Below are positions 4,776 through 27,177 of a stretch of 30,968 bases of DNA, one piece after another. The notes beneath the pieces are model-generated. The model was given only the letters and a program-made list of their open reading frames with translations. It had not been told where the DNA came from and did not search any database. Position 1 is the stretch's first letter, and the number at the start of each line of letters is the position of its first letter. The stretch is from a bacterium. GTDB lineage: Bacteria; Krumholzibacteriota; Krumholzibacteriia; G020349025. The stretch spans positions 1 to 30,968 of the forward strand of contig JANLSU010000117.1 in the NCBI GenBank assembly GCA_031362565.1, given 5' to 3'. The position numbers and the translations under genes were made by a program.

Positions 4776-4798
4776 CGGCGCGCCGGTCGTGAAGCAAG

Positions 4799-5738: not shown

Positions 5739-5759
5739 GGTTTCGAGCCTCCAGCACGG

Positions 5760-5768
5760 AGAATAGCA
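5760..5768 (-). promoter_or_regulatory. Extended -10 promoter of the toxin-antitoxin operon
   Basis: Minus strand TG-C-TATTCT, then ccgtgct-GGAGG-9 nt-GTG start. Confidence 0.5.
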
Positions 5769-5959
5769 TTTAGCTGGCCACGTCGGAAGGACCTAGACAT
5801 CGGTTCAGTGTAATTTCTGGGCGTACTTGCCAGAAGACGAAGTCCGCCTGGTTCCTCGAACGTGGGCCGGTTTTCAAGACCGATCACCACCCGAGGCCGC
5901 GGGACTTGGCCCGCTGCGGGCCCGCGTGCTAGGGTGCCCCGACTCTCGAGGAGGCGAAG

Positions 5960-6550
5960 ATGCAGGCCGTTCGACGTGCGACTCTGGCGGACTTTGCTGG
6001 AACGACGACTTGGACTCGCGATCTCGTGCTGGTCGGGCTCGCCAGTCTGGCCACCGGCCTCTTGGCCCAGGCCGAAGTTCGTTTGCCTTTCACACCGGTG
6101 CCGGTGACCCTGCAGCCGCTCGCGGTCTTTCTCGTTGGTGCGGCGCTCGGCAGCCGGCGCGGCGCGTTGGCGATGCTGGCCTACTTGGCGGAGGGTGCCG
6201 CAGGCCTGCCGTTCTTTGCCGGTGGCGCGGCCGGACTGCACCATCTCGCCGGCCCGACCGGTGGATACTTGTTGGGATTCGTGCCGGCAGCATTCGTCAT
6301 CGGCCTTGGCGCCGAGCGCGGCTGGGATCGAACCCCGGTCCGCGCCTTCGCCGCCATGCTTCTGGGATCGGTCGTTCTCTTCGCCTGCGGCCTCGCGCAG
6401 CTCGGGTTCTTCGTCGGCCGCAGTCAAGTCCTCGCGCTTGGCCTCTATCCGTTCCTGATCGGCGACGTGCTCAAGATCGCCGTTGCCGCCACCAGCCTGC
6501 CGCTCGTTTGGAAGTTGCTCGAGCGCAGCGGTCTCACGCCGCGCGAGTAA
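5960..6550 (+). CDS. bioY: Biotin transporter BioY (ECF S component)
   Basis: 'LPFTPVPVTLQ', 'LG.RRG....LAYLAEGAAGLPFF', 'GPTGGYLLGF', 'PFLIGDVLK'; GAGGAGG RBS. Confidence 0.95.
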   Translation: MQAVRRATLADFAGTTTWTRDLVLVGLASLATGLLAQAEVRLPFTPVPVTLQPLAVFLVGAALGSRRGALAMLAYLAEGAAGLPFFAGGAAGLHHLAGPTGGYLLGFVPAAFVIGLGAERGWDRTPVRAFAAMLLGSVVLFACGLAQLGFFVGRSQVLALGLYPFLIGDVLKIAVAATSLPLVWKLLERSGLTPRE

Positions 6551-6557
6551 TTTTCGG

Positions 6558-8423
6558 CTACGGCTTCCAGCGCCGCCACCACAGGCGGAACACCAGCAAT
6601 GGATACAGGTGGGCGCTCCAGTCGTGGGCGCCGGCCATGTGTTCGCGCAGCATGCGTTCCACGAAGGCACGGTCGAAGAATTGCTCGCCGCCGTCATCGC
6701 GCGCCAGAATTTCATCGTGCAACATGTCGCGCAGCTCGTGCATGAACCACTTCTCGATCGGCACGCCGAAACCCTGCTTCTTGCGGTAGACGATCTCGTG
6801 CGGCACGAACGATTCCACCGTCCGCTTCAAGATGTACTTCGACACGCCATTGCGGCGTTTGAACTCGGACGGAATGCGGGCCACGAATTCGAGCAGCGGG
6901 TGGTCCACGAGCGGCGCGCGGACTTCCAGCGAACAGGCCATGCTGGCGCGATCCACCTTCACCAGGATGTCGCTCGTCATGTACGACTTGGTGTCGGCAT
7001 ACAGCACGCGCGACAGGAAATCCGGGAACGGCTGGGAATCCATATAGGCCGCGAAAACCCGCTCGACGTTGGCGCCCGCCAGGTGCCGGCGGGTTTCGGG
7101 CGCAAACAACCGCTGGCGCTGTTCGGCGTCGAAAATCTTGTAGAAACGGCCGGCGAGCGGCCGGTTCGCACGCCGCACGGCGCCGGCGACGCGCGTCAGC
7201 TTGCGGTGTCCGGTGAGGCGCGCCGCGGCGCCGAGACCGGCCGCCGCCAGTGACCGCACCGGGTGCGGCACCCGGCGGTGGAATCGTTCGTCACGCTCGT
7301 GCACGGCGTGCGAGTCGTACCCCGCGAACGCTTCATCGCCGCCATCGCCGGACAGCACGACCGTCACGTGCCGGCGCGCCATCTGCGACACCATGAAAGT
7401 GGGCAGCGCCGACGGGTCGCCGAAGGGCTCGTCGAAGTGGTACACCAGCTTGGCGAGCAGTTCGGCGGCGTTGGGCCGCAGGATTTCTTCGTGATGATCG
7501 GTGTGGAACGTCTTCGCCGCCAAGCGCGCGAAGTGCAGTTCGTCATGGCTTTCTTCCTCGAAACCAATCGAAAACGTCTTGACCGGCTCGTCGATGAGCT
7601 GGCTCATGAGCCCGACGACGGTCGCGGAATCGACGCCGCCGCTCAAGAAGGCGCCGAGCGGCACGTCGCTCACCAGGCGGCAACGCACCGCATCGGTCAG
7701 CAGCTCACGCAAGTTCTCGATATAGAAGCGTTCGTCGGTTTCGCGGAACGGTTCATCGAAGCGCAGGTCCCAATACGGACGCACGTCGACCCTGCCACGT
7801 TCGAGCTTCAAGAAATGCCCGGCCGGCAGCTTGCGAATTTCACGGAAGATGCACAGTGGATCGGGGATGTACAAATACCCGAAATAGTGTTCGAGCGCCT
7901 CCCAGTCGAGCGACAACTGGAGCCCTGGGACCTGTCGCAGGGCCTTGATCTCGGACCCGAAGGCGAGGTTCTTGCCGTCCCAAGCGTAATACAGCGGTTT
8001 CTTGCCGACCCGGTCCCGGCCCAAAAGCAGGATGTCGCGCTTGCGATCCCAGAGCGCGATGGCGAACATGCCGCGCAAACGCTCGAACATCGCGTCGCCG
8101 GCCTCTTCGTAGAGGTGGACCAGCACTTCGGTGTCCGTATGGGTCGTGAAGCGATGCCCCTTCGCCTCGAGTTCAGCCCGGATGGCGCGGAAGTTGTAGA
8201 TTTCACCGTTCTGAACGACCCACACCGATTCGTCCTCGTTGTGGATCGGCATGCGGCCGCTCGTCAAGTCGATGATGGCGAGACGCCGCGAGGCGAGCCC
8301 GACGCGCTCGTCGGTGTAGAATCCTTCGTCGTCGGGGCCCCGGTGCACGATGGTATCGTTCATGCGCTGGAGCACGCCGCGGTCGATGCTCCCCGGTGCA
8401 TACAGGCCGCAAATACCGCACAT
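6558..8423 (-). CDS. asnB: Asparagine synthase (glutamine-hydrolysing) family amidotransferase, probably glycan-amidating
   Basis: True start MCGICG (Ntn Cys) at 8423; 'HRGPD', 'RRLAIID', 'NGEIYN', 'LSGGVDS', 'VLSGDGGDE', 'KVDRASMACSLEVRAP', 'RKKQGF'. Confidence 0.93.
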   Translation of the reverse strand: MCGICGLYAPGSIDRGVLQRMNDTIVHRGPDDEGFYTDERVGLASRRLAIIDLTSGRMPIHNEDESVWVVQNGEIYNFRAIRAELEAKGHRFTTHTDTEVLVHLYEEAGDAMFERLRGMFAIALWDRKRDILLLGRDRVGKKPLYYAWDGKNLAFGSEIKALRQVPGLQLSLDWEALEHYFGYLYIPDPLCIFREIRKLPAGHFLKLERGRVDVRPYWDLRFDEPFRETDERFYIENLRELLTDAVRCRLVSDVPLGAFLSGGVDSATVVGLMSQLIDEPVKTFSIGFEEESHDELHFARLAAKTFHTDHHEEILRPNAAELLAKLVYHFDEPFGDPSALPTFMVSQMARRHVTVVLSGDGGDEAFAGYDSHAVHERDERFHRRVPHPVRSLAAAGLGAAARLTGHRKLTRVAGAVRRANRPLAGRFYKIFDAEQRQRLFAPETRRHLAGANVERVFAAYMDSQPFPDFLSRVLYADTKSYMTSDILVKVDRASMACSLEVRAPLVDHPLLEFVARIPSEFKRRNGVSKYILKRTVESFVPHEIVYRKKQGFGVPIEKWFMHELRDMLHDEILARDDGGEQFFDRAFVERMLREHMAGAHDWSAHLYPLLVFRLWWRRWKP

Positions 8424-8585
8424 GTCGTCCGAGGCTCCAGGGTGAGGGGCGGGGCTTGGCCGGTGCCGATCGTATCGGACCACCGGCGCGGCCCACAAGG
8501 GCGCGCTTGACCCACGCCGCGCGCTGCGGCGATGCTCGGCGTGCGTCGTTCGGGTGAATGCCTTCGACAGGTGAGCGGAGAAACC

Positions 8586-9734
8586 GTGCAGACGGAGCGT
8601 AGCGCGGCGGGTGACCGCCTCGACATCGGGATCTTCATCGCCTTGCTGCCACCCGAGCACCTTGGCGGTGCCGAGTTGCAAGCCGACCGTTTGGGACGCG
8701 AACTCGCCGCCCGTGGGCACCGCGTCCACATCTTCACCCGCGCCCAGGCGGGGCGCCGAAACAACGAAGAAATCGCTGGTGTCACGGTGCATCGCCGTCC
8801 GGTGGTGCCGATTCCGGGTCTGCGCTTGGCGGGTGAAATCGTCTTTGCGACCGTGCAAGCGGCGCGCGTCCACCCGGATGTTTTCTTGTGCTATATGACC
8901 ATGAACAGCGGCCTTCTCGGGGCCTTCGCATCGGCGCGCTGTGGGGCTCCGTTCATCATCTGGCAACGGGCCGACGGCGAATCGCTGGTCGGTGTGACGG
9001 CACTGCGGCGCCGGCTGGCGTTCGCGTTGAATCGCCGTGCGGCAGGTGTTTGGGTGCAGTCGCAGACGTTCGTCGCGACGATCGAGAAAGCGTACGCGGC
9101 GGCGCGCCGCGGCGCCGCCTGGCAAGACCTCGCCGGACGTGTGCGCATCCTCGGCAATGGCCTCGATGTGCCGGACGCTCGCACCGAGAGCCAGCCGCCG
9201 CCCTGGCGCCTGGTGTTTGTCGGGCGGCTGACGCCGGAAAAGGATCTGCCGACGTTGATCGCCGCGGCGCGTCTCGTGCCCGAATGCGAGATTTGGATCG
9301 TCGGGGCTGGGCCGCTGCGTCTGGAGTTGGAAGAGAGCGCCCGCGGTACGCGGGTGCAATTCTTGGGCGCCCAGGATCACGCCCGCATCGGCGAGTTGAT
9401 CCGTGAATCGCGTGCTCTGGTGCTCTGCTCCGTCGAAGAAGGCATTCCGAACGTCGTGCTCGAGGCCTTCGCCGCCGGCCGCCCGGTGATCGCGACCCCG
9501 GTGGGCGCGGTGCCGGACTTGGTGCAGGACGGCGTCAATGGTCTGATCGTTCCGAGGCGCGATCCGGTGCGCCTTGCAGCCGCGATGCGCGAACTGTGCA
9601 ACGACGCACGCTGGCGCCGGCTCGCCGCCGGCGCGCGTCCGACCGCACTCGCGTTTGCATGGCCGGAACTCGTGACCCGTGTCGAAGCTGAACTGGCGGC
9701 GGTCGTCGCGGCGCGTCCGGGGCGGCGGCCATGA
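8586..9734 (+). CDS. GT4 glycosyltransferase
   Basis: 'PEHLGGAE', 'LARGHRV', 'FVGRLTPEKD', 'EGIPNVVLEAFAAGRPVIAT.VG'; start uncertain (8532, 8571 or 8586; GGAG precedes 8586). Confidence 0.9.
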   Translation: MQTERSAAGDRLDIGIFIALLPPEHLGGAELQADRLGRELAARGHRVHIFTRAQAGRRNNEEIAGVTVHRRPVVPIPGLRLAGEIVFATVQAARVHPDVFLCYMTMNSGLLGAFASARCGAPFIIWQRADGESLVGVTALRRRLAFALNRRAAGVWVQSQTFVATIEKAYAAARRGAAWQDLAGRVRILGNGLDVPDARTESQPPPWRLVFVGRLTPEKDLPTLIAAARLVPECEIWIVGAGPLRLELEESARGTRVQFLGAQDHARIGELIRESRALVLCSVEEGIPNVVLEAFAAGRPVIATPVGAVPDLVQDGVNGLIVPRRDPVRLAAAMRELCNDARWRRLAAGARPTALAFAWPELVTRVEAELAAVVAARPGRRP

Positions 9735-10969
9735 CGCCGCGCGCCGCGCCGCCACTCCATGATCCCGAAACCGAATTGGCCGCCGATGAACTCGCGACGC
9801 CGCACGGCCTCGTCTGGCGCGCCCGCGCTCGCTATCCCGATCTCTACCGGCACGGCGGGGTGTACGTCGCCGCCGGCCGCGAATGGCAGCCGCACGATTT
9901 GGCGCGCGTGACGCGCGAACCGCGCGCCGCGGGGTTGGCTGCGGAGCGTTGGTTGGTTCTCGACGTCGAGACCACCGGCCTTGGGGCGCGCGCCGGCACC
10001 TATGCGTTCCTCGTCGGGCTCGGATGGTGGGAGAAGGACGCGTTCATGGTCGAGCAACTTCTGATGCGCGACCCGTCCGACGAACCCGCGCTCTTGTCGG
10101 CGGTCACCGAACGGCTGGCCGGATTTGCCGGACTCGTAACCTTCAACGGCAAGGCGTTCGACGCGCCGCTGCTCGCAACGCGGTTCGCGATGTCGCGCCA
10201 GCCGGCGCCGCACGCCGGGCTCGTGCATTGCGACATGCTGCACGCGGCGCGCCGCGTCACGATCGAAGGTGAACGCGGTGGATCGCGGCTAGCGGCGCTC
10301 GAGAAGCGCTGGCTCGGGGTGTGGCGCCACGCCGATATCGCTGGGCGTGACGTGCCGGACGTCTACTTGGACTATTTGCGTACCGGCAATTCCGTCGTGC
10401 TGGACGGGGTGCTGCGCCACAACCGCGTCGACATTCTGAGTTTGGCGCTCCTCACGGCCGAGGTTGCGCGCTTCCCGCCCCGAACCCTGGCGGCGCTGGC
10501 GGACCCCGGCGGCGTTGCCGCCGAACGGCTCGCGGTGGCGCGCATCTACGACGCGGCCGGCGAGCGAGACACGGCCGAGTCGTTGTACGAAGCCTGCCTC
10601 GGTGCCGCGGCGCCGCTTCCGGTGCGTCGGGGTGCGCACCAAGCGTTGGCGAAGTCCCGGAAGCGTCGTGGCGATCTCCTGGGGGCCTGCGCGCTCTGGG
10701 AGCGCATGCTCGAGGCCGAACCCGACCTCGTCGAACCTTGCGAGGAGCTGGCCAAGGCGCTCGAGCACCGCTTGGCGGCGCCCGGACGCGCCTTAGAGCG
10801 AGTTGCGGCGCGGCTCGAGGGCGCGGCCCTGGGGGAGGGCGAGCGCCAGCAGCTCGTGCACCGGCAGCAACGCCTCGAGCGCAAGGTCGGCAACTTGCGA
10901 CTGGCACAGCTCGAAACGGCGCCTGCCGAGGGCCCCTTGGACCCCGCCGCTTCGCAACCGTGCCCTTGA
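9731..10969 (+). CDS. YprB/MrfB-like RNase H-like (DEDDh) exonuclease with C-terminal TPR-like helices
   Basis: 'LDVETTGL', 'AFLVGLG', 'LVTFNGKAFDAP', 'HCDMLH', 'HNRVD'; C-terminal 'EELAKALEH'; ATGA overlap with the upstream GT. Confidence 0.85.
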   Translation: MTPRAAPPLHDPETELAADELATPHGLVWRARARYPDLYRHGGVYVAAGREWQPHDLARVTREPRAAGLAAERWLVLDVETTGLGARAGTYAFLVGLGWWEKDAFMVEQLLMRDPSDEPALLSAVTERLAGFAGLVTFNGKAFDAPLLATRFAMSRQPAPHAGLVHCDMLHAARRVTIEGERGGSRLAALEKRWLGVWRHADIAGRDVPDVYLDYLRTGNSVVLDGVLRHNRVDILSLALLTAEVARFPPRTLAALADPGGVAAERLAVARIYDAAGERDTAESLYEACLGAAAPLPVRRGAHQALAKSRKRRGDLLGACALWERMLEAEPDLVEPCEELAKALEHRLAAPGRALERVAARLEGAALGEGERQQLVHRQQRLERKVGNLRLAQLETAPAEGPLDPAASQPCP

Positions 10970-10995: not shown

Positions 10996-11058
10996 TCCCT
11001 TCTCCGATGAACGTGCGTGTCCGCCATCCCGACGCGCCATGAGGAGGTCACGCAAGGC

Positions 11059-14000
11059 ATGCCCGCGACCCGTCCGCGACCCGCGAGGACGATGCGACCC
11101 ATTGCGCTATGGGCGGTTTCCGCCATGGTGGCGCTCTGCTTCTTCGGTGCCCCCGTGGCGCATGCATTTGTCGGGCGTCCCGCGCTGGGACGGCTCGTCG
11201 TCAAACTGCGTGACGAAGTTAGTGTGCAGCCGGCGCCCGGCAAGGCGGGCCAGGCAGCGACCACCGGCAACCGCAGCCTCGATGCTTTGAACGCCACGTT
11301 CGGCGTGCAGCAGTTCGCGCCGGAGTTCGTGGGCGCGTCGCACGCCAGCAAAGCGATCGCCGGACACGATCTCGCCAGCTACTTCATCCTCCAGTTCTCG
11401 GACGGCGTCGATCTGAACGCGATTCGCGCCGCCTACGCCGCCGATGCCGCTGTTGAGAACGCCGAGTTCGACATGCTGATGCCGGTGTCACACGAGCCCA
11501 ACGATCTCGGCTCGCAGTGGCATTTGGAGAGCGTGACGGGAAGTGATGCGCATCTCACCGGTGGTTGGAATCACACCAAGGGTAGTTCGAGCGTCCTGCT
11601 CGCGATCGCCGACACGGGCGTCGACTGGCAACACCCGGACTTGGCCGCCAACATTTGGTCGAACCCGGGTGAGATCGCCGGCAACGGCATCGATGACGAT
11701 GCAGATGGTCTCATCGATGACGTACGGGGTTGGGATTTCGTGTCGACTCTGACCGGCGCCTGGCCGGGCGAGGACGCCGTCGGGGAAGACAACGACCCGA
11801 GCGATTTCAACGGCCACGGAACGCATTGTGCCGGCATCGCCGCCGCGGTCACCAACAACAACCTCGGGGTGTGTGGCGTCGCCTACAACTGCAAGATTCT
11901 GCCGCTCCGCATCGGTGGTTCGATCAATGATAACCAGGCGGAGCAAGGCGTCGTCCTGATGAGCGCCGCGGCCCAGGCGATCGACTTCGCGCGCCGCAAG
12001 GGCGCCGTCGCCATCAATTGTAGCTGGGGTTCCAGCAATGCGTCCGGCCTTGGCGCTGCCTGCTCGACGGCGATTGCGGCGGGCATGGTCGTGTGCGTGG
12101 CGGCCGGCAACGACAACGCCAATGCGCCCGCCTACTTGAACTCGCGCGGCGACTGCATGGACGTCGGCGCGACCGGTTCCGGCGATGCCCGGGCAAGTTT
12201 CTCGAACTTTGGCGCGTGGGTGGACGTCTGCGCGCCGGGTGTTTCGATCTACAGCACGTACTTTTTCCACGGCGCTTCCGGCGCCGCCCAGCACGGCTAC
12301 ACGGCTCTGTCGGGCACTTCCATGGCGACGCCGGTCGTCACCGGGCTCGTCGGGCTCGTCCGCACCTTGAACCCCGGCTTCACGGCGCTCCAAACGCGCA
12401 ACTATATCAAAGCGGGTTGCGACAATATCGACATGCAAAACCCGGGATTCGTCGGCCAACTGGGAGCAGGACGCGTCAACGCGCTGCGGATGTTCAAGGA
12501 CTACAATCTGACGATCCCGGCCGATTATCCGAGTTTCGACAAGGCACTGACGGCCAGTGGCGCCGGTGACACCTTGGCGCTTCGCGGTGGCGACGTGTAC
12601 ACGAACGGCTGGTTCGTGACCCGCACTCAACGGCTCGTCCAGGGCGGCTGGAACTCGGACTTTACGGGGCGCGATCCGATCAACAACCCGACGATCGTGC
12701 AACGCACCGGTGTCGGCCCGGTGCTCGAGTTTACGCCGATCGTCGACAACACGCTCATCATCGACGGGGTCAGTTTCTCGGGTGGCGTCGGGCGGAATCT
12801 CTCGTCACCGCTTCCCGGCACATTCGGCGGGGGCGTGTTGTGCATCGACGCATCGCCGGTGCTGCGGAATTGCCGCATCATCTCCAATAGCGCCGGCGAC
12901 GCTTTCACGACCGGCGGCGGCGGTGGGGCGTTTTTCGCGAATTCCTCGGCGCTGCTGCAGAATTGCACCATTTCCGGCAACAGTGCGTCGCAGGGCGCCG
13001 GCCTGTACGTGCTCAATTCCACCCTCAGCATTCAAGGCGGCTCGATCGCGTCGAATACCGGCGTGGGTGGCGGGTCGACGACCGCCGGGGCCGGTCTTTA
13101 TCTCGACGGCGGCACTCTGACCCTGAACGGCCTGACGATCGACGCCAACAATGCGGTGCAGGACGGCGGCGGCATCTACCTCAAGACGGGGTCCCTCGAC
13201 GCGACGGGAGTCGTCTGTTCGAACAACGGCGCGACGGGCTCGGGCGGCAACCTGCGTATTGCCGGCGGCAGTGCGGTGCTCCGGGGCTCGGAACTGCGGA
13301 ACGGCGCGGCGACGTTCGGTGCCGGCGTGGCGCTTGCGAGCGGCACCTCCATTGCGCTCCAGTCCTGCCTCGTGAGCGGCAATCAGGCGTCGCTTCTCGG
13401 CGGCGGGATCTACGCCACGGCGGCGAATGGCGCGCTCGCCAACGTCACCTTCGATGCGAACCGCGGCGTTGCCGGCGGCGGTGACGCGGTATTTGCCAGT
13501 GGGTGTCCAGCGCCGTGGACGGTGCGCAATGGGCTCATCACCAACCATACGACGGCGGTCAACGCGGCTTGCAGCTTCAACGGTGCGGCACCGCAACTGG
13601 ACTACAACACGTTTTGGAACAATGCCCTGAATGTTGCGGGCGGATCGTTGGGGGCGCATGACACGATCGAGAACCCGTTGTACGTCAATCAAGCTGGTGG
13701 CGTCTTAGCGCTGGCGATGAATTCGCCGGCACTCGACAGCGGTGATCCGCTGATTGCGTTCAACGATCCGGATGGGACGCGCGCCAATCGGGGTGCGTTC
13801 GGCGGTCCGAATGCCGTGAGTGCGGCGCCGGTGCCGCCGGGCGGTTTGCACGCCCAACGCCTGTCGAATCCGGTGCGCAATGCCGTGACCTGGCTCGCCG
13901 TGCCACCGGCCGGCTTGCAACTATATGCGCTCTACCGTGGAGCCAACGCGCAGTTCGTGCCGTCGGCGTCGACGCTCGTCACGACGGTTCCGGCCGGCAC

Positions 14001-14415
14001 GCTGGCGTTCAACGATCCGGCCGGCGCGGCCGCCGACTGGTACAAGATCGCGGCGGTTTCGACGACCGGTGCGTCGTCGGGATTCGGGCCGGCGTCGCCG
14101 GTCACTGCCGCCACCGATGCGCCGCCGCAGTTGCCGCAGCGCTTCGCGTTACATAGCAACGTGCCGAATCCCTTCAATCCGACGACGACTCTGCAGTTCG
14201 ATCTGCCGGTGGATGCGTGGGTGCGCGTCGATGTCGTGGACTCGAAGGGCCGCGTCGTGCGGCAACTGGTGGACGGGCCGCGAGCGGCCGGCGTGCACCA
14301 TGCCAACTGGAATGGCCGCGACACCGCCGGCCGCGAAGTGGCATCCGGAATCTACTTCGCCCGTTTCTCCACCGCGTCCGAACACGCGGTCCGCAAGATG
14401 ATCCTGGTGCGCTGA
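11059..14415 (+). CDS. Secreted S8 subtilase with parallel beta-helix region and C-terminal FlgD-Ig/T9SS-like sorting domain
   Basis: Catalytic motifs 'IADTG', 'GHGTHCAG', 'AAGN', 'GTSMATP'; GG(A/G)(I/L)Y...N repeats; tail 'NVPNPFNPTT...GIYF...RKMILVR'; GAGGAGG at 11041 supports ATG 11059. Confidence 0.9.
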   Translation: MPATRPRPARTMRPIALWAVSAMVALCFFGAPVAHAFVGRPALGRLVVKLRDEVSVQPAPGKAGQAATTGNRSLDALNATFGVQQFAPEFVGASHASKAIAGHDLASYFILQFSDGVDLNAIRAAYAADAAVENAEFDMLMPVSHEPNDLGSQWHLESVTGSDAHLTGGWNHTKGSSSVLLAIADTGVDWQHPDLAANIWSNPGEIAGNGIDDDADGLIDDVRGWDFVSTLTGAWPGEDAVGEDNDPSDFNGHGTHCAGIAAAVTNNNLGVCGVAYNCKILPLRIGGSINDNQAEQGVVLMSAAAQAIDFARRKGAVAINCSWGSSNASGLGAACSTAIAAGMVVCVAAGNDNANAPAYLNSRGDCMDVGATGSGDARASFSNFGAWVDVCAPGVSIYSTYFFHGASGAAQHGYTALSGTSMATPVVTGLVGLVRTLNPGFTALQTRNYIKAGCDNIDMQNPGFVGQLGAGRVNALRMFKDYNLTIPADYPSFDKALTASGAGDTLALRGGDVYTNGWFVTRTQRLVQGGWNSDFTGRDPINNPTIVQRTGVGPVLEFTPIVDNTLIIDGVSFSGGVGRNLSSPLPGTFGGGVLCIDASPVLRNCRIISNSAGDAFTTGGGGGAFFANSSALLQNCTISGNSASQGAGLYVLNSTLSIQGGSIASNTGVGGGSTTAGAGLYLDGGTLTLNGLTIDANNAVQDGGGIYLKTGSLDATGVVCSNNGATGSGGNLRIAGGSAVLRGSELRNGAATFGAGVALASGTSIALQSCLVSGNQASLLGGGIYATAANGALANVTFDANRGVAGGGDAVFASGCPAPWTVRNGLITNHTTAVNAACSFNGAAPQLDYNTFWNNALNVAGGSLGAHDTIENPLYVNQAGGVLALAMNSPALDSGDPLIAFNDPDGTRANRGAFGGPNAVSAAPVPPGGLHAQRLSNPVRNAVTWLAVPPAGLQLYALYRGANAQFVPSASTLVTTVPAGTLAFNDPAGAAADWYKIAAVSTTGASSGFGPASPVTAATDAPPQLPQRFALHSNVPNPFNPTTTLQFDLPVDAWVRVDVVDSKGRVVRQLVDGPRAAGVHHANWNGRDTAGREVASGIYFARFSTASEHAVRKMILVR

Positions 14416-14425
14416 AGGGCGGCAC

Positions 14426-15127
14426 GTGGCGTACGACGTCGTGGTCTTCGGGGCGCACCCGGATGACGCTGAAATGGGTATGGGCGGCACGATCGCGAAG
14501 CTGTGCCGGGCCGGGCGTTCGGTGCTCATCGTGGCGCTGACGCGCGGCGAGCAAGGGACGCACGGCACTCTCGAGTCGCGCCAGGCCGAAGCCGCCGCCG
14601 CCGCCCGCGTGCTGGGCTGCGATCACCGGCTGCTCGACTTCCCCGACACCCGCGTCGAGAACAACATCGAGGGCCGGACGCGATTGATGCGCCTGGTGCG
14701 CGAACTCGCACCGCAAATCGTCTTTGCGCCCTACCACACGAATCGCTTCGGCCACCACGACGGGGCCGCGCACGTCGATCATCTGGCGGCGGGTGCGCTG
14801 GTCAAGGACGCGCTGAAACTGGCGCGGCTGCGCGGCCTGGAACCCGAGCGCCCGGCGCACGACGTCCGGCGCCTGTTCCATTATATGGTGCCGCGCGACC
14901 GCTACCCGTCGTTCCTCATCGACGTGAGCGATGAGATGGAGACGCTGGTGCGCGCTCTGCAAGCCTACGAGACCCAGATGCGCATCGAGCGGCAAGGCAA
15001 CGCCATCCTCGCCATCCTGGAGACCTACCGGCGCTACAACGGCATTGCCGCCGGGTGCACGCACGCCGAGCCCTTTCTCTGCGACGAGGCGCTGCGGGTC
15101 GACCCCGAGACCCTGTTCCGGATTTGA
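14426..15127 (+). CDS. bshB1: PIG-L/LmbE family N-acetylglucosaminyl deacetylase, BshB1-like
   Basis: 'FGAHPDDAEMGMGGTI', 'LTRGEQGTHGT...R..EA..AA.VLG', 'HVDH', 'AYETQ', 'AEPF'. Confidence 0.7.
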   Translation: MAYDVVVFGAHPDDAEMGMGGTIAKLCRAGRSVLIVALTRGEQGTHGTLESRQAEAAAAARVLGCDHRLLDFPDTRVENNIEGRTRLMRLVRELAPQIVFAPYHTNRFGHHDGAAHVDHLAAGALVKDALKLARLRGLEPERPAHDVRRLFHYMVPRDRYPSFLIDVSDEMETLVRALQAYETQMRIERQGNAILAILETYRRYNGIAAGCTHAEPFLCDEALRVDPETLFRI

Positions 15128-15186: not shown

Positions 15187-15195
15187 TGCTATGAT
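15187..15195 (+). promoter_or_regulatory. Extended -10 promoter of the carbamoyltransferase operon
   Basis: TG-C-TATGAT about 75 bp upstream of the SxtJ-like gene. Confidence 0.5.
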
Positions 15196-15269: not shown

Positions 15270-15509
15270 TTGCACGCCATCGTCTCGATCTTCAAAGGGT
15301 TCTACCGCCTGTGGATGCGGTTCGCGCATCTGCTGGGGACCGTGAACCGGTTCGTCTTCCTGACGCTCTTCTACTGGATCATCATCGACATCTCGAACCT
15401 TGGTGTGCGCCTGGGGCGCCAGGACCTCCTCGACCGGCGCATGGTGCCGCGGGCGAGCTACTGGCACCGCCGGCTCACGCAGTCCAACACGCACAAGCAG
15501 CAGTTCTGA
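15270..15509 (+). CDS. SxtJ-family small membrane protein (short form)
   Basis: 'YRLWMRFAHLLG.VN...LTLFY....GRQDLL.RR....SYW.......QQF' matches the SxtJ C-terminal pattern; adjacent to the carbamoyltransferase; exact start uncertain. Confidence 0.8.
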   Translation: MHAIVSIFKGFYRLWMRFAHLLGTVNRFVFLTLFYWIIIDISNLGVRLGRQDLLDRRMVPRASYWHRRLTQSNTHKQQF

Positions 15510-15564
15510 ACCCCGCCTCGCCGCGCCCCGAAGCGCTGGCGTGGTGCTTCGGAGAGCGAATTCC

Positions 15565-17301
15565 ATGAACATCCTCGGGATCTCAGCTCTGTATCACGAT
15601 TCGGCGGCCTGTCTCATTCAGGACGGCAAAATCGTCGCGGCGGCGTCCGAGGAGCGGTTCACGCGCAAGAAGCACGACCACGATTTTCCGGTCAATGCCG
15701 TCCAGTACTGCTTGAAGGAGGGCGGCATCGAGGTCAAGGACCTCGACTACGTCGGCTTCTACGACAAGCCGCTCATCAAGTTCGAACGGATCCTCTACAC
15801 GTACCTGGCGACGTTCCCGAAGTCGTTCCCGTCCTTCATGAAGGCCATTCCGCTGTGGCTCACCGAGAAGCTGTGGATCCCCAACCAGATCCACAAGAAG
15901 CTGCAGTACAAGGGTCCGATCCTGTTCGCCGAGCACCATGAATCGCACGCGGCGAGTTCGTTCCTGGTGTCGCCGTTCAAAGAGGCGGCGATCCTGACCG
16001 TCGACGGGGTCGGCGAATGGGCGACCTCGACGATGGGTGTCGGACGCGGCAACAAGATCGAGATTCTGAACGAGATCCGGTTCCCGCACTCGCTCGGGCT
16101 CCTGTACAGCGCCTTCACGTACTACCTGGGCTTCAAGGTGAACAGCGCCGAGTACAAAGTCATGGGCTTGGCGCCCTACGGCACGCCGAAGTACATGAAA
16201 GAGATGGAAGAGCTCATCACCATCGCCGACGATGGCAGTTTCAAGATGAACATGCAGTACTTCGCCTACGACTATGGGCTCACCATGACGAACAAGAAAT
16301 TCGACAAGTTGTTCGGTGCACCGCCACGGCCGCCGGAGTCCCCGGTCACGCAGCGCGAAATGGACCTGGCGGCGACCGTCCAAAAGGTGACCGAAGACGT
16401 GGTTCTCAAGATGTGCCGCAACCTGCACGCGCAGACCGGCCTGGATTCCTTGTGCATGGCGGGCGGCGTGGCGTTGAACTGCGTCGCGAACGGCAAGATT
16501 ATTCGCGAGACACCGTTCAAGAACATCTTCGTCCAGCCTGCCGCCGGTGATGCCGGTGGCGCGCTCGGAGTTGCGGCGCTCATCTGGTATTCGATCCTCG
16601 ACAACCCGCGTACGACGCCGATGCCGAATTCGTACCTCGGGCCCGAGTACTCGCGTGACGATATCCGCAAGTACTTGACCGAGAACGGCGTCCAGTATCA
16701 CGAACTGCCGTACGACGACTTGCTCGACCGGACCGCACAATTGATCGACGAGCAGGCGGTGGTCGGCTGGTTCCAGGGCCGCATGGAATTCGGGCCGCGG
16801 GCGCTCGGCAACCGCAGCATTCTCGCCGACGCGCGCAACCCGGCGAACAAAGACGTCGTCAACATGAAGATCAAATTTCGCGAGAGCTTCCGGCCGTTCG
16901 CGCCGTCGGTGCTCGCTGAACGGGCGTCCGATTGGTTCGAACTCGACCAGCCGAGCCCCTACATGCTGCTCGTGGCACCGGTGCGGGAAGACCATCGGAC
17001 GATTCCGTCGGTCACCCACATCGATGGCAGCGCCCGTATTCAGACCGTGACCCGCGACCAGAACGCCATCTACTACGACCTCATCAAGCGTTTCGAGGCG
17101 CGCACCGGCTGCCCGGTCATCATCAATACGTCGTTCAACGTGCGTGGCGAGCCGATCGTCATGACGCCGCACGACGCCTACATGTGCTTCATGCGCACCA
17201 ACATGGAGTACCTGGTGATGGACCATTTTCTGCTCGACAAGCGCGAGATGAAGCCGCTGCAGGATGACGTGGACTGGCGCAATCTCTTCGAGCTGGACTG
17301 A
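15565..17301 (+). CDS. NodU/CmcH/TobZ-family O-carbamoyltransferase (SxtI-like)
   Basis: Start MNILGISALYHDSAA with GGAG RBS; 'EERFTRKKH', 'EHHESHAAS', 'DGVGE', 'EYKVMGLAPYG', 'AGGVALNC', 'GRMEFGPRALGNRS', 'KFRESFRPFAP', 'NTSFNVRGEP'. Confidence 0.96.
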   Translation: MNILGISALYHDSAACLIQDGKIVAAASEERFTRKKHDHDFPVNAVQYCLKEGGIEVKDLDYVGFYDKPLIKFERILYTYLATFPKSFPSFMKAIPLWLTEKLWIPNQIHKKLQYKGPILFAEHHESHAASSFLVSPFKEAAILTVDGVGEWATSTMGVGRGNKIEILNEIRFPHSLGLLYSAFTYYLGFKVNSAEYKVMGLAPYGTPKYMKEMEELITIADDGSFKMNMQYFAYDYGLTMTNKKFDKLFGAPPRPPESPVTQREMDLAATVQKVTEDVVLKMCRNLHAQTGLDSLCMAGGVALNCVANGKIIRETPFKNIFVQPAAGDAGGALGVAALIWYSILDNPRTTPMPNSYLGPEYSRDDIRKYLTENGVQYHELPYDDLLDRTAQLIDEQAVVGWFQGRMEFGPRALGNRSILADARNPANKDVVNMKIKFRESFRPFAPSVLAERASDWFELDQPSPYMLLVAPVREDHRTIPSVTHIDGSARIQTVTRDQNAIYYDLIKRFEARTGCPVIINTSFNVRGEPIVMTPHDAYMCFMRTNMEYLVMDHFLLDKREMKPLQDDVDWRNLFELD

Positions 17302-17309
17302 GGGCATCC

Positions 17310-18521
17310 GTGGCTCGCGGGCGAGTGGCAGGCGCGGCGGCAAACGTCGCGCTACTAGCCGGCAGCGCGCTCCTGATGCTGCTCGTTCTCGAAGCCGGGG
17401 TCCGGATCCTGCGCCCGCAACCCATGGCGGCCGTCGCACGTTCGCCACGCCTCGGCTGGACCCACAAGGTGAATGCCGACATCGTCTACGAGCGGCAGGA
17501 GTTCCGCACTCCGGTACATTTCTCGAGCGCCGGGTTGCGCGACCGCGAATATCCCCTGGGGAAGCCGGCCGGAACGACACGCATCGCCATACTCGGTGAT
17601 TCGTTCGTCGAGGCACTGCAGGTGCCGCTCGACTCGTGCATGGCTAAACGCCTCGAAGCGCGCCTCAATGCCGGTTCGACTGGTGGACACCGGTATGAGG
17701 TTCTCAATTTCGGCGTCAGCGGTTACGGCACCTGCCAGCAACTGCTCTTGCTCGAGGAAACGGCGCGCCGGTTCCATCCGGATCTCGTCATCGCCCAGTA
17801 CTGCACGAATGATTTGGACGATGACCGGCGCTACAGCGTGTGCTCCTTGGCACCGGACGGCACGCTGCGCGTGGCGCCGGCGGTCGATCTGTCGTTCGCA
17901 GAACGTGTCAAGGCGGCGGGCAAATCGTTTCTGTTGCAACACAGCCACTTGTGGATGTTCGTGTCGACTCGTAAACCGCGCGTTGTGCAATTGGGTAGCC
18001 CGGCCGAGACGGCGGCGGCGCCCGGCGCGCCGGTGCTGGCGGTTTCGAACGAAACGGGTGGCCCCGCGGTGCCGAGTTGTCCCGGGCACCACCGCACTTT
18101 GGAGTGGCGCCTGACGCTGCGCGACGAGCTGGCGGATGCCGCCACGGCGGTCGAACAGCACGCGGCAATTTGGGCCCGCATGCAGGACGAATGCCGCGCC
18201 GACGGAGCGCAGTTCCTCGGCGTCATCGGCGTGTCTCGGACCCAAGTCGAGCCCGAGCTCTACGCGGCTTCGATCGCGCGCGCCGAGTGCCAGGCCGCAG
18301 CGCACGACGTCGACCTACCGCCCGAGCGGCTCGCTGCCGCAGCCGCCGCGCATGGGGTCGAGGTCGTGGACCTTCTGGCCGCCTTTCGCGCCGCGGCCGC
18401 CCAGGCGCCGCTGCATTTCCGGATCGACGGCCACTGGAACGCCGCCGGGCACCGGGTCGCGGCGGCCGCCCTCTACCAAGCGCTCGAGGCGCGTGGTATC
18501 CTCAAAAAAGACGCACCCTGA
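17310..18521 (+). CDS. Membrane-anchored SGNH-family protein (AlgX/AlgJ/DltD-like, DxH type)
   Basis: N-terminal TM; block I 'LGDSF', block II 'NFGVSGYG', block III 'TND', block V 'DGHWN..GH'. Confidence 0.85.
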   Translation: MARGRVAGAAANVALLAGSALLMLLVLEAGVRILRPQPMAAVARSPRLGWTHKVNADIVYERQEFRTPVHFSSAGLRDREYPLGKPAGTTRIAILGDSFVEALQVPLDSCMAKRLEARLNAGSTGGHRYEVLNFGVSGYGTCQQLLLLEETARRFHPDLVIAQYCTNDLDDDRRYSVCSLAPDGTLRVAPAVDLSFAERVKAAGKSFLLQHSHLWMFVSTRKPRVVQLGSPAETAAAPGAPVLAVSNETGGPAVPSCPGHHRTLEWRLTLRDELADAATAVEQHAAIWARMQDECRADGAQFLGVIGVSRTQVEPELYAASIARAECQAAAHDVDLPPERLAAAAAAHGVEVVDLLAAFRAAAAQAPLHFRIDGHWNAAGHRVAAAALYQALEARGILKKDAP

Positions 18522-18532
18522 GAAGGGACCCC

Positions 18533-18724
18533 ATGAGTTTCCTGTCCAACGCCCGCGAAAACGCCCGCGACAAAGTCAGCATCTTTGGCGAGCTGTGGCG
18601 TTTCATGCGCGTCCGCAAGAAGTTCTGGCTGGGGCCGATCCTGCTCATGCTGGTGCTCTTGGGCCTGCTGATCGTTTTCACGCAGGGCTCGGCACTCGCG
18701 CCGTTCATCTACGCGCTGTTCTGA
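18533..18724 (+). CDS. DUF5989/SxtK-family membrane peptide (63 aa) ending in FIYALF
   Basis: ATG 18533 with AAGGGA RBS; 'ELWRFMRVRKKFWLGPI...QGSALAPFIYALF*'; hidden at the end of ORF-track entry 18077..18724. Confidence 0.9.
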   Translation: MSFLSNARENARDKVSIFGELWRFMRVRKKFWLGPILLMLVLLGLLIVFTQGSALAPFIYALF

Positions 18725-18733
18725 TTCATCATC

Positions 18734-19894
18734 GTGGCGACTCGTCTCAAGGTCGTCGTCTGCTCTGAAGTGCAGTGGCACTATGTGCGCACGCGTAAGC
18801 AGCAGCTCGTGCGGCGTTTCCCGGCCGACTGGCCGGTCTTGTTCCTGCAGTCCTACGTGCGGGGGCGGCCCAATGCCTGGCGGCCGCAACGTGACGGCAA
18901 CGTGACCTTCGTCACGGTGCCGGTGTTCAAGAGTGTGCCCAACCCGTTCCTGCGCCGGCTACTCGACCTGGGACTCGTGCGCGGCATCATCAACCTGGCC
19001 CTCGCGGTGTGGGTGTGGGCGGTGCGCGCCGCGACCGGATTCGGCGGCCGGGATACGGCGCTTCTGGTTTCGAATATTTTCTATGGCCGCATCCTCGGCT
19101 GGATGCCACGGCGCGTGGCGATTTACGATTGCAACGACAATCACCTGGCGTTTCCCGGCACACCCGCTTGGGCGCGGGGCTATCTCGAGCGCATTGTGCG
19201 CGGTGTCGACGCGGTCGTAGTCAGCTCGAATGTCTTGCGTGAGGAAATCGATCCGCTCGGTCCGCGCCGGGTCGTCGAGATCGGCAACGGCGTCGACTTC
19301 GAATTGTTCGACGCGGCATTTCGAGCCCCGCGGCGCGTCGAGGACATGGCGAATTTGCCCCGCCCGTGCATCGGCTACGCCGGCGCACTCGCCGAGTGGA
19401 TCGACCTCGAATTGTTGGTGGCGACGGCGCAGGCGATTCCCAACGGCACCATGGTGCTCGTGGGCCCAGCGGTGGGCCCCTCGGTTCGCCCGGCGGAACT
19501 CGCGGCCACGACGCCCAACCTGGTGTGGCTCGGCGCCAAGCCGCACGAGGACCTGCCGCACTATCTGGCCGCCATGGATGTGTGCCTCATCCCGTTTCGC
19601 AGCAACGCGCTGACGCGCGGCGTGAATCCCAACAAACTCTGGGAATACTTGGCGATGGGCAAAGCGGTCGTGTCGACCGACTTCTCGCCCTTCGTGCACG
19701 ACTATGCGGCGGTCGTGCGGGTTGGAGCTACAGCGGAGGCGTTCGTCGGGGAAGTGCGTGCGGCATTGGCAGAGACGGCGACGGCGGCGTCGGCTGCGAT
19801 CGAGGCGCGGCGTGACGTTGCTCGCGGCCACGGCTGGGACGAATCGGCGGCGCGGATGGTGAGTCTGATCCGCGAACTTGCGGTGACGGGCTAG
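18734..19894 (+). CDS. GT4 glycosyltransferase (TuaH-like)
   Basis: 'W...RTRKQQL', 'IYDCND', 'GNGVDF', 'IGYAGAL.EWID', 'DVCLIPF......NPNKLWEYLAMGK.VVST'. Confidence 0.88.
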   Translation: MATRLKVVVCSEVQWHYVRTRKQQLVRRFPADWPVLFLQSYVRGRPNAWRPQRDGNVTFVTVPVFKSVPNPFLRRLLDLGLVRGIINLALAVWVWAVRAATGFGGRDTALLVSNIFYGRILGWMPRRVAIYDCNDNHLAFPGTPAWARGYLERIVRGVDAVVVSSNVLREEIDPLGPRRVVEIGNGVDFELFDAAFRAPRRVEDMANLPRPCIGYAGALAEWIDLELLVATAQAIPNGTMVLVGPAVGPSVRPAELAATTPNLVWLGAKPHEDLPHYLAAMDVCLIPFRSNALTRGVNPNKLWEYLAMGKAVVSTDFSPFVHDYAAVVRVGATAEAFVGEVRAALAETATAASAAIEARRDVARGHGWDESAARMVSLIRELAVTG

Positions 19895-20153: not shown

Positions 20154-21845
20154 GTGGAGAAGACGGTTCGTTTGCTGGTTGGGCTCTTGCGTTCGCAGGA
20201 CACTTCGTTGCGCCTTGCCGCCATGCGTGTTGTTGCGGCGCTGGAAATCGATTCGAAGGCGGCTATTGACGCGCTGGCTGAAAGCTTGGAGACCGATGAT
20301 GAGTCGGTGCAGGTGCAGGCGCTGCGGGCGTTGGCGCAACTCGGTCCGGCGGATGCTTTGCACTTGGTGGCACCGAAGATTTTGGCGCCGGGCGCGGTGC
20401 GCCAGCAGGCGGTGCAGGTGCTGACCCTGGCGGGGGCGGCGTCGGTGGCGCCGCTGCGCAAGCTGTTTCCCAGCGCGGATCATCATGGCAAGCGCGCCAT
20501 CGCGACGACGCTCGCGGCGATCGGTGGCACGGCGAGCCTGCAGTTTCTGTTGAAGGCAATTCCCGGTGCGGATCTCGAGTTCATCAAACACCTGACGGCT
20601 TGTGCGCGGCAGGTCATCGAGGGGCTGCCGCCGGGGGGGCGGGCGGCGGCAGTGCGTGAGCTCAGGACGTTCTTGCGCGACAAGGCGACACTCGCCAACC
20701 CGCATGCGGTCATTTCGGGACTGATTCTGCTGGGCGGGATCAGCGATGCGCGCGGCGCCGACGAAGCGCAAGCGTTGCTGTTGCAGTACATGGATCGCAA
20801 ACAGCCGGAGCCCGTGCGCCGCAATGCGGCGGTGTCGCTGGCGCGCCTGCCGGTGCAGACGGCACGCATCGCCACGCTGTTGCCGAAGATCGTCCCGTTC
20901 CTGTGCGAATCCGATTGGGCGCCGGTGCCGCAGAACATCCTGCCGCTCTTGCAAAAGCTCGAGTTGCAGCCGGCGGCCGCGGTGTCGCTGGTGCCGCTCT
21001 TGAAGAAGAGCCCGCATCCTTCGGTGCAGGGACACGTGCTGGAACGGCTCCGGGGCCTCGACAAGCCGGCGGTTGCCAAGGAAGTGCTGCCGTTCCTGGC
21101 GTCCTCGCATCCACGCCTGCGCGATGCTGCCGAGGCCGCGCTCAAGACGATGCCGAGCGCCGCGGAGGCGCTTCTCGATGTGTGGATGCAAGGCGGCGAT
21201 CCCGACGTCGCGCGCCGCGCCGATGCCGTGCTCCGCGCCTTCCCCGAACCGGTCCGCAAACGCGGCGCCGCGCGGGCCGTCGAGCGTTTGCTCGCGCTGC
21301 ACGAAAAAGGTGACGCCCGCTGGCAGTCGTTCCTGGGATTCGTGCGCGGCACCGACCCCGCGGCGCTCCAAAAGCAGATCGACAAACGCCTGGCGGCGTT
21401 GCGCAAGAGCACGTCGGTGAAGCGCTTCGAAGCGATGGAGCGTCTCTTGCAGTTGCTGTGGGATCAGAACCTGCTGCAGCCGGCGCAGCGCTATGAGTAT
21501 GGTGTGCTGCTGTTGCGGAAGAGCCGCAAAGACCTGGGCCGCGAAGCGCGCCTGGCCGATCCGGCGCTCCGGGTACTGGGCGGCGTCGCGCGGCACGATG
21601 GTGCCAAGCTCGTGACCCAGCTCGGCAAGGAACGCGCCGTCGGCGCCGAAGAGCTGTATTACATGGGGTTCCATTGGTCGGAGGGCAGTGACGACGTGCG
21701 CGGCGTGGCGCGCACTCTCTTGGCGGAGGTCGTCAAGAAATATCCCCGTCACAAGTTGCGCAAGGCGGCGGAACATAAGCTGACGTTGCTCGATCGCAAC
21801 GTCGCTTCAGCGGCCGCGGCGCCTGGCACGGAGACGGCACGTTGA
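20154..21845 (+). CDS. HEAT/armadillo-repeat protein
   Basis: Repeated 'LR.AA...L..L', 'VQVQALRALAQLG', 'VRRNAAVSLARL', 'LRDAAEAAL'; GGGGAG before GTG 20154 (alternative ATG 20127). Confidence 0.8.
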   Translation: MEKTVRLLVGLLRSQDTSLRLAAMRVVAALEIDSKAAIDALAESLETDDESVQVQALRALAQLGPADALHLVAPKILAPGAVRQQAVQVLTLAGAASVAPLRKLFPSADHHGKRAIATTLAAIGGTASLQFLLKAIPGADLEFIKHLTACARQVIEGLPPGGRAAAVRELRTFLRDKATLANPHAVISGLILLGGISDARGADEAQALLLQYMDRKQPEPVRRNAAVSLARLPVQTARIATLLPKIVPFLCESDWAPVPQNILPLLQKLELQPAAAVSLVPLLKKSPHPSVQGHVLERLRGLDKPAVAKEVLPFLASSHPRLRDAAEAALKTMPSAAEALLDVWMQGGDPDVARRADAVLRAFPEPVRKRGAARAVERLLALHEKGDARWQSFLGFVRGTDPAALQKQIDKRLAALRKSTSVKRFEAMERLLQLLWDQNLLQPAQRYEYGVLLLRKSRKDLGREARLADPALRVLGGVARHDGAKLVTQLGKERAVGAEELYYMGFHWSEGSDDVRGVARTLLAEVVKKYPRHKLRKAAEHKLTLLDRNVASAAAAPGTETAR

Positions 21846-22492
21846 CCGACCTCAAACCTGGTTTACCGCCGGACGAAGTCGAAAAAATGCGCTGGCAAGC
21901 GTTTGGCCAGAAGCGCGCTTGCATGTTGAAGTCCGCCGACGAACTCGTGCTGTTCGTGGAACGGCGCGGCATCGTGCTCTTGGGACCGGCGCCGGGGCTG
22001 CACTATCCGAGCGCCGTCGAGGCCGCTGTCGGCAGGCCACTCCTCGAATTCGTGCAGGACGAACGCAGTGCGCAAGTCCGGGTGTGGTTCGAGACCTTGG
22101 TGAAGGCCAACAAGCTGGCGCGCGGCGCGTTGCAAGACCGGTTCGAGGCGGCGCTCGCTCCGGCCATCGTCGTGGATGTCCTGGCGGCAGGCGCGGGGCG
22201 GCCCTTGGATGCAGCGCTCCGCGCCCTCGCCGAAGCCCGCCCCAAGGATGCCAAGAAAGCGTTGAAGACGGATCCCGCCCAGGCCCGGGCCCGGCTCGCG
22301 GCGCGTGTCCTGCAAAACGTGTTGGTCGTGGCCTCGCACGAACTCGCCCGTCTGTTTGCGTGGCGCGAAGCGGATGCGAGTCTCGCGCTCCGCGCCGTCG
22401 TCGAGTCCGGTGAAGCCGCACTCCATCCCGCCTCGCGCCCGCGGCGTGAGACGTTTCAGACCCGCGCCACCCATCTGCTCGACGAAGTGTGA
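21842..22492 (+). CDS. Hypothetical protein, possibly a degenerate AlkZ/YcaQ-related winged-helix protein
   Basis: TTGA overlap with the HEAT gene; 'SADELVLFVERRGIVLL......PS...A' and 'ELARLFAW' resemble AlkZ-related segments. Confidence 0.55.
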   Translation: MTDLKPGLPPDEVEKMRWQAFGQKRACMLKSADELVLFVERRGIVLLGPAPGLHYPSAVEAAVGRPLLEFVQDERSAQVRVWFETLVKANKLARGALQDRFEAALAPAIVVDVLAAGAGRPLDAALRALAEARPKDAKKALKTDPAQARARLAARVLQNVLVVASHELARLFAWREADASLALRAVVESGEAALHPASRPRRETFQTRATHLLDEV

Positions 22493-26895: not shown

Positions 26896-27177
26896 ATGAA
26901 GATTCCTCTACCTCGGTTCGTTGCAGTGCTCATCGGGATCGTGCTCTGCGGCGCTGCGTGCGACGGCACTCACCCGACGGCGCCGTTAACGGCGCCTATC
27001 CAAATCCCAGCCGTGTCACTTGCGGGCCATGGATTTGCGGCTGTAGGCGCGATGGTTTTTCGAAACGGCGTCGGTACCTGCGAGGTGAATGGTGTCGAGG
27101 TGCCGGCGGTTGTCGATGACGTATCTCGCTGGCTAGACTCGAAATCGCACCGTCACCGCAGCAAGACCAGCTTCTGA
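26896..27177 (+). CDS. Small putative lipoprotein (possibly truncated or spurious)
   Basis: Signal-like N-terminus ending 'LCGAAC'; 3' end overlaps the convergent gene by 25 nt; weak RBS. Confidence 0.35.
   Translation: MKIPLPRFVAVLIGIVLCGAACDGTHPTAPLTAPIQIPAVSLAGHGFAAVGAMVFRNGVGTCEVNGVEVPAVVDDVSRWLDSKSHRHRSKTSF

Follow-up and report, generated by a model that had tools for sequence, protein, structure and literature searches.

A conserved carbamoyltransferase, SxtJ and DUF5989 triad in a Krumholzibacteriota operon, and a candidate MBOAT-free carbamoyl-tyrosine relay to SGNH proteins

The window analyzed here, the whole 30,968-nucleotide contig JANLSU010000117.1 of a bacterium of the phylum Krumholzibacteriota (GenBank assembly GCA_031362565.1), contains a five-gene operon on the plus strand for a short SxtJ-family membrane protein, a NodU/TobZ-type O-carbamoyltransferase, an SGNH protein, a DUF5989 (SxtK) microprotein ending in FIYALF, and a GT4 glycosyltransferase. 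The conserved unit in this arrangement is a triad of one carbamoyltransferase clade, SxtJ and DUF5989, whereas the link to SGNH proteins is real but loose, with a partner that is often present in multiple copies. On balance, we favor the view that the triad serves as an MBOAT-free carbamoyl-tyrosine relay that feeds several outward-facing SGNH transferases.

The triad and its tyrosine tail

The enzyme and SxtJ are encoded beside the peptide in 65 of 80 GTDB loci, and in 51 of the 57 loci that are well flanked, i.e. that have at least 2.5 kb on both sides. In the host phylum, 61 genomes were compared: the peptide occurs in 36, exactly those that have a carbamoyltransferase scoring above 300 bits, and each of these also has SxtJ. 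Co-occurrence of the families, with or without an MBOAT, had been suggested as a check in the sequence-only reading and was borne out. Of 39 peptide copies in the phylum, 11 lie beyond 8 kb of the enzyme, some of them through contig breaks, and G044 has an SxtJ-like match only. In 121 alphaproteobacterial genomes (one of which, G602, is counted only in the totals), the enzyme adjoins the peptide in 19 of 21 peptide-positive genomes, with one case cut by a contig end; 18 of the 19 clade enzymes are accompanied by the peptide, which is found in none of the 8 genomes that have only other carbamoyltransferases. In Sinorhizobium meliloti 1021, the triad lies on pSymB, at about 484 kb. The earlier idea of a five-gene unit thus stands for three genes only: the triad is fixed, while the SGNH gene is loosely linked and often multi-copy, and neither of the two relatives of the same family (G007 and G015) has it in the operon. 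The five-gene operon was rejected as the conserved unit. Three loci (L121, L128, L129) encode SxtJ and the peptide near a GT4 gene, with no enzyme within 14 kb, and a neighboring open reading frame (ORF) there looks HypF-like by its N-terminus.

The carbamoyltransferase of the window (15565..17301, plus strand, 578 aa from its ATG) has the Kae1-like and YrdC-like domains of its family (PF02543, E 7e-98; PF16861, E 3e-74), a GPRALG motif at position 410, and relatives in the PDB with E-values from 4e-106 to 5e-88. No hydrophobic segment was found in it, in line with its earlier description as signal-less. With KPxxKFER at 68-75 and a terminal FELD, it belongs to an SxtI-like clade; in a tree of 56 ingroup sequences, about half of the available ones, the triad-linked enzymes group together to the exclusion of four paralogues (support 0.98). 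Among 105 clade enzymes, 75 have KPxxKxxR and 88 end in F/Y-x-LD, and the KPxxKxxR region is amphipathic, ranking 4 of 568 windows scanned. Carbamoyl-phosphate synthase subunits adjoin the module in 3 of the 80 loci (L032, L052, L087). A second type of carbamoyltransferase occurs without SxtJ or SxtK at L116 (contig C36 of the window's own genome, G000), L113 and L114, where polysaccharide clusters of the host's family also contain GT4 and asparagine-synthase-like genes next to it, and a third type is found on contig C60 of the same genome.

The SxtJ protein of the window (15270..15509, plus strand, 79 aa) is a short form, of which the relative in G015 has 78 aa, with an amphipathic helix, an SYW motif and a terminal QF. 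Its match to PF19588 (E 0.0036) is below the Pfam cut-off, but with an SxtJ profile built without it, it is the best match of the genome (E 7e-15). Its hydrophobic segment (28-46) has basic residues on both sides, and in 57 of 64 SxtJ proteins the conserved hydrophobic segment has a net positive charge on both sides, which suggests that it may be a re-entrant element. A structure model with a predicted template modelling score of 0.48 shows one long helix. At L156 (3644-5887), a natural fusion combines carbamoyltransferase and SxtJ in 747 aa. Genes for an anchored SGNH-like protein and for the peptide come next, and a MATE exporter and a PhyH dioxygenase are encoded nearby.

The microprotein (18533..18724, plus strand, 63 aa; PF19451, E 1.7e-24) consists of an N-terminal part, one membrane helix (31-49) that follows RVRKK, and the C-terminal FIYALF directly before the stop. 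This F-x-Y-x-x-F hexapeptide is encoded at 18704..18721, with the codon of Tyr60 at 18710-18712. The closest named relatives are from Krumholzibacteria, and the family is widespread: 5,113 clusters were matched, about 13,000 stored GTDB stretches are estimated by extrapolation from 3 of 64 parts of the collection, and one cyanobacterial order has DUF5989 in 96 of 401 genomes, whereas a phage collection gave no match. In UniRef, members are labeled SxtK; the 54-aa PF19451 proteins so named are cyanobacterial (Trichodesmium, Planktothrix etc.) and not from a sequenced sxt cluster.

For the tyrosine, lack of conservation had been named in the sequence-only reading as a finding that would speak against a shuttle. 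In an alignment of 138 peptides (79 of the 80 locus copies, 58 hand-picked database proteins and the window peptide), Y60 is invariant, as are W32 and P35. Of 268 database proteins, 245 end in xxYxxF and 3 others in FIYxxI, and most of the remaining ones extend beyond the motif. As one of the two GTDB scan patterns contained the tyrosine, sets found by profile were checked as well: FIYxxF is present in 47 of 47 cyanobacterial copies, and in 17 of 19 further copies (18 low-scoring and one unlinked) despite a diverged N-terminal part, the other 2 being broken before the tail. All 138 peptides have a single hydrophobic helix, with the tyrosine 9-11 residues past it and 3 from the end. In 137 of them the net charge before the helix is positive, and 127 lack Lys and Arg beyond it; a topology with the N-terminus inside and the tail outside is therefore predicted from hydropathy and the positive-inside rule. 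In MBOAT tails, by a rough helix call, the tyrosine lies 7-11 residues past the last helix in about 12-13 of 16 cases and 1-4 residues past it in 3. Chance was rejected as an explanation of the FIYALF tail. A six-frame scan of the window's genome gave an F-x-Y-x-x-F end in 4 of 70,182 segments (about 1 per 17,500), and a scan from start codons gave two DUF5989 copies, an MBOAT and one unannotated 85-aa ORF. The second DUF5989 copy, also ending in FIYALF (L004:16789-16989, minus strand, corresponding to G000:C56:68788-68988), is some 340 bp away from the contig end and lies tail to tail with a gene for an SGNH-TPR protein that has a membrane anchor.

Independence from MBOAT proteins and the link to SGNH proteins

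In known systems of this kind, an acyl group is carried by the tyrosine of an FXYXXF motif, as shown for DltX and PatA, and shuttled to an SGNH serine (PMC12148441). One might thus propose that the peptide and the SGNH protein serve an MBOAT encoded elsewhere, as a DltX-like shuttle of acetyl or aminoacyl groups with the carbamoyltransferase as a chance neighbor. In agreement with the earlier description of an operon without MBOAT, there is none in the window. The genome does have a single MBOAT match, on contig C16, which could be taken in favor of this proposal, but that protein ends in its own FIYFQF and has its own SGNH protein. The 19 MBOATs of 16 other peptide-positive genomes comprise 15 with a fused tail, 3 with a separate small FxYxxF ORF and 1 that is cut, so that complete MBOATs bring their own tail in 18 of 18 cases. 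Moreover, no MBOAT was matched in 19 of the 36 phylum genomes with the peptide (completeness 94-100%), the presence of peptide and MBOAT is not associated in the phylum (p 0.80), an MBOAT was found within 8 kb of 0 of the 39 peptide copies, and an MBOAT occurs in only 3 of the 80 GTDB loci, each time with its own tail or tail ORF. The service of an MBOAT by the peptide, which had been set as a refuting outcome, was rejected as the general case, and this explanation is now highly improbable for the window. What does support it is a locus of G620 (L198:6075-11186), in which two divergent DUF5989-like peptides with FLYAVF ends are encoded in an SGNH-MBOAT-SGNH operon; no clade carbamoyltransferase was found in G620, and its MBOAT carries its own tail. 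This locus ties the DUF5989 family to shuttle function, and use of such peptides by MBOATs may occur. MBOAT pathways other than Dlt are said to lack such a microprotein (PMC12148441); at L158, L159, L163 and L026, tail-less MBOATs outside Dlt operons each have an unannotated small FxYxxF ORF nearby that is DltX-like.

The SGNH protein of the window (17310..18521, plus strand, 403 aa; PF13472 and PF16822) has the residues S98, N167 and D373-G-H375 and a hydrophobic segment at 13-31, which bears out its earlier description as membrane-anchored with a DxH motif. In an alignment of 143 such proteins, S98 is present in all and H375 in 140, and neighboring SGNH proteins keep the Ser and His in 90 and the anchor in 88 of 95 cases. 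The match to PF16822 reaches 38.7 bits at a cut-off of 26.5, and the SGNH profile matches AlgJ (4o8v) and AlgX (4knc) in the C-terminal part. An SGNH gene is found within 2.5 kb of the peptide gene in 31 of the 80 GTDB loci (26 of the 57 well-flanked ones) and in 33 of 47 cyanobacterial loci, against a background of 7 in 611 8-kb windows of the own genome. Within 4 kb, it accompanies 19 of 36 clade enzymes versus 1 of 12 other carbamoyltransferases. In four cyanobacterial loci (L140, L141, L142, L149), the peptide gene is directly followed by 3-5 SGNH paralogues in tandem.

At the genome level, the family is present in 36 of 36 peptide-positive versus 11 of 25 peptide-negative phylum genomes, and in MBOAT-free genomes in 19 of 19 (mean 4.1 matches) versus 3 of 12 (mean 0.25). 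In peptide-negative genomes, 8 of 12 SGNH matches adjoin an MBOAT, and in peptide-positive ones 109 of 138 listed matches are near neither triad nor MBOAT. The alphaproteobacterial genomes give 17 of 21 peptide-positive versus 7 of 100 negative, at an E-value threshold of up to 1e-15 that we chose to drop short generic matches; of the four misses, three have a divergent SGNH gene beside the triad, and the fourth is on a 2.9-kb contig. The SGNH profile thus under-detects divergent members, but with a broader profile no further ones were gained in the 80 and 47 loci.

The proposed relay, its relatives and its alternatives

We propose that transport of the carbamoyl group proceeds in five steps. 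TobZ makes carbamoyl-AMP from carbamoyl phosphate and ATP, and the cytoplasmic enzyme, as a member of this family, would do the same. SxtJ would keep the enzyme at the inner face of the membrane, as the natural fusion and the co-occurrence suggest. The third step is the weakest and is speculative: the uncharged 13-residue tail of the peptide might dip back through a thinned membrane patch, possibly formed by SxtJ, the peptide and amphipathic helices of the enzyme, and Tyr60 would be carbamoylated there. Serine hydrolases are carbamoylated by aryl carbamates, with slow turnover, and by analogy to DltX/DltD and PatA/PatB the tyrosine aryl carbamate would then acylate Ser98 of the SGNH protein, which in view of the gene context would finally move the carbamoyl group to a sugar hydroxyl. 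We thus infer that the enzyme loads Tyr60, that transfer runs via Ser98 and that the acceptor is a polysaccharide. One triad per genome would in this way supply several dispersed SGNH paralogues.

In its proposed working, the module resembles the Dlt, Pat and Alg systems. As in DltX-DltB-DltD, PatA-PatB and AlgI-AlgJ/AlgX, a single-pass microprotein or last helix ends in FXYXXF (PMC12148441), and a membrane-anchored SGNH protein with Ser and DxH would be combined with a cytoplasmic activated donor. It is not a member of these systems, because the MBOAT is missing: the predicted loader is a soluble carbamoyltransferase with SxtJ, the group would be a carbamate rather than a carboxylic ester, the peptide is a DUF5989 protein, and the SGNH partners are many and often unlinked. 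Pfam searches with the peptide at E-values up to 0.01 gave only PF19451 and thus no DltX family match, a direct comparison with a DltX alignment not having been made. In its sequences, the module is homologous to the sxtIJK cassette of saxitoxin clusters. Like sxtI-sxtJ-sxtK-sxtL, it combines a carbamoyltransferase, SxtJ, SxtK/DUF5989 and a GDSL/SGNH gene (PMC2679770, PMC3037375). The cyanobacterial loci match the order and size of sxtI-sxtJ-sxtK (612, 134 and 54 aa), and their SGNH gene, a possible SxtL orthologue, has the same position and a similar size; no saxitoxin cluster was recognized among these 47 loci. The window differs in gene order and in its short SxtJ, and family scans gave no other sxt core gene among the window's proteins, a genome-wide search not having been made. 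The true SxtL may also belong to another SGNH subfamily than that of the window. The enzyme shares both Pfam domains, the GPRALG motif and PDB relatives with NodU, TobZ and GdmN, known members of which act directly on soluble acceptors, and differs from them by its separate clade, the conserved amphipathic segment, the terminal FELD and its tie to two membrane microproteins.

As for the acceptor, a GT4 gene follows the peptide gene in the window, in G007 and in G015, an orthologue of the window's SGNH protein in G007 adjoins a Wzx flippase inside a Wzy cluster, and the Ensifer locus lies among Wzx and Wza genes. At the window locus, the acceptor is probably a surface polysaccharide. It is not always a glycan, because MATE exporters adjoin the module at L156 and L157, and at L136 it is part of a non-ribosomal peptide synthetase (NRPS) cluster; the extracytoplasmic glycan of the sequence-only reading thus fits the GT4 and Wzx/Wzy contexts and does not extend to these loci. 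The NRPS cluster at L136 contains enzyme, peptide and an SGNH-like gene (5135-8408), and within the 14 kb covered SxtJ was not detected. Glycosyltransferases make up 29 of 219 neighbors and occur in 18 of 80 loci, counts for which no background was computed. It is thus conceivable, if rather improbable, that the relay is real and that the acceptor at the window locus is an exported small molecule, a lipid or a secreted protein: the NRPS and MATE loci would agree with this, as would the 62 of 80 loci with no glycosyltransferase among the scanned neighbors, but the GT4 genes in all three same-family operons and the Wzx/Wzy cluster around the SGNH orthologue in G007 speak for a glycan. At L022, L024 and L035, exosortase or DUF3485 (EpsI-type) genes lie directly 3' of the peptide gene.

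Several points weigh against a relay to SGNH transferases. No multi-pass protein is present that could carry bound carbamoyl-AMP to an outward-facing tyrosine. There is no SGNH gene in the fetched flanks of 29 of the 57 well-flanked loci, and in G007 and G015 the operon runs SxtJ, enzyme, peptide and GT4; the G007 orthologue of the window's SGNH protein (56% identical, best reciprocal match) lies about 20 kb away, and no equally close match was found in G015. Contingency counts such as those above overstate significance, because kin genomes are not independent. Some genomes depart from the triad: no peptide was found in G029, where a clade-like enzyme and a weak SxtJ match are present, or in G618, which has a clade enzyme, and G643 has the peptide and no clade enzyme. 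The block II Gly, a hydrolase trait (PMC12148441), is kept in 131 of 143 SGNH proteins, and several MBOAT-linked SGNH proteins here keep it too. In a fold search with a model of the SGNH protein (predicted local distance difference test score 92, with a long N-terminal helix), the nearest solved fold is CgnD (PDB 8a2n; Z 22.0, root-mean-square deviation 4.3, 236 aligned residues; next match Z 15.8), which is 18% identical and has DxxH where the window protein has DxH. CgnD, encoded in the crocagin cluster together with an O-carbamoyltransferase, reportedly acts as a leader peptidase, though a slow one (PMC10070186). PatB (7tjb, Z 13.0) appears amid many SGNH hydrolases, and the absence of AlgJ, AlgX and DltD from the 50 fold matches listed is no evidence of a difference; the modeled fold leaves transferase versus hydrolase undecided. 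A predicted complex of enzyme (1-350), SxtJ, SGNH protein (8-400) and peptide gave scores of 0.24 and 0.30 at a mark of 0.32, and thus no answer. From the sxt literature, the GDSL protein SxtL has been proposed as a decarbamoylase (PMC3037375, PMC2679770), and saxitoxin producers have been annotated without sxtK or sxtJ, by annotation only (PMC5834425); the truncated sxtI and missing sxtL of Lyngbya wollei (PMC3037375) fit either reading of SxtL.

The main alternative is a complex at the inner face, in which SxtJ and SxtK merely anchor or activate a carbamoyltransferase that acts directly on a lipid-linked glycan or on a small molecule before export. The tyrosine tail would then have a structural role, and the SGNH proteins would serve as decarbamoylases or editors, or be acylhydrolases unrelated to the module. 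No membrane crossing would be needed, the far tighter linkage of the triad compared with the SGNH link (51 versus 26 of 57 loci) would be expected, the fusion of enzyme and SxtJ would be simple anchoring, and occurrence in NRPS and MATE clusters, the hydrolase CgnD (PMC10070186) and the block II Gly would all agree. So would the published proposals for SxtL and for SxtI, of which reviews say only that it acts with SxtJ and SxtK (PMC2679770, PMC12300590). We nevertheless regard such a complex as unlikely, although clearly less so than a non-glycan acceptor, as it leaves unexplained why the stop-terminal FxYxxF is predicted outside with the spacing of MBOAT tails, why the tail is kept where the rest of the peptide diverges, why anchored SGNH proteins are present and expanded in 19 of 19 MBOAT-free peptide-positive genomes, and why DUF5989-like peptides occur within an MBOAT-SGNH operon (L198).

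If the MBOAT-free relay is correct, loading of a tyrosine shuttle requires neither MBOAT nor AT3, and a carbamate can be among the groups carried; a function would be assigned to the very common DUF5989 family and to SxtJ and SxtK, for which the sxt tables consulted give "unknown" or "hypothetical", overlooked carbamoylated surface glycans would be predicted in many phyla, and many orphan membrane-anchored SGNH proteins would be offered a role. [quoted passage not shown] In that case, the GDSL gene of sxtIJKL-type cassettes would encode a transferase, not a hydrolase. In the open literature (subscription papers not covered), we found no paper naming DUF5989, and in the titles and passages covered the FXYXXF motif is not tied to carbamoylation.

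The operon and its surroundings

The operon is as the sequence-only reading had described it, with five genes on the plus strand, gaps of 55, 8, 11 and 9 bp and the FIYALF end, all located by ORF and Pfam checks. The GT4 gene (18734..19894, plus strand, 386 aa) matches GT4 Pfam families, with TuaH as best NCBIfam match, under its cut-off. None of the five proteins has a Pfam match to the AT3 membrane domain, and no RNA holder is listed for the operon. Upstream of it, the extended -10-like motif TGCTATGAT is present at 15187..15195 (plus strand), as had been noted, and is the sole TGNTATRAT match in the window. As a promoter it is weak evidence, because shuffled sequence yields a match in 12 of 100 cases and a sigma-70 -35/-10 scan gave no promoter for the operon.

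A BshB1-type deacetylase gene, barely above the NCBIfam cut-off, lies at 14426-15127 and precedes the operon both here and in G007. A C-terminal FlgD-Ig or secretion sorting-like domain is shared by an S8 protease and one other protein (11017-14415 and 27153-29009). The region 2643-9755 encodes on the minus strand two GT4 proteins, BacA, BioY and an asparagine-synthase-like protein, overlapped by plus-strand ORF predictions. For 648-1814 (minus strand) and 21842-22492, Pfam gave no match at the thresholds applied, and an IS630-family transposase gene is found at the contig end (29744-30826).

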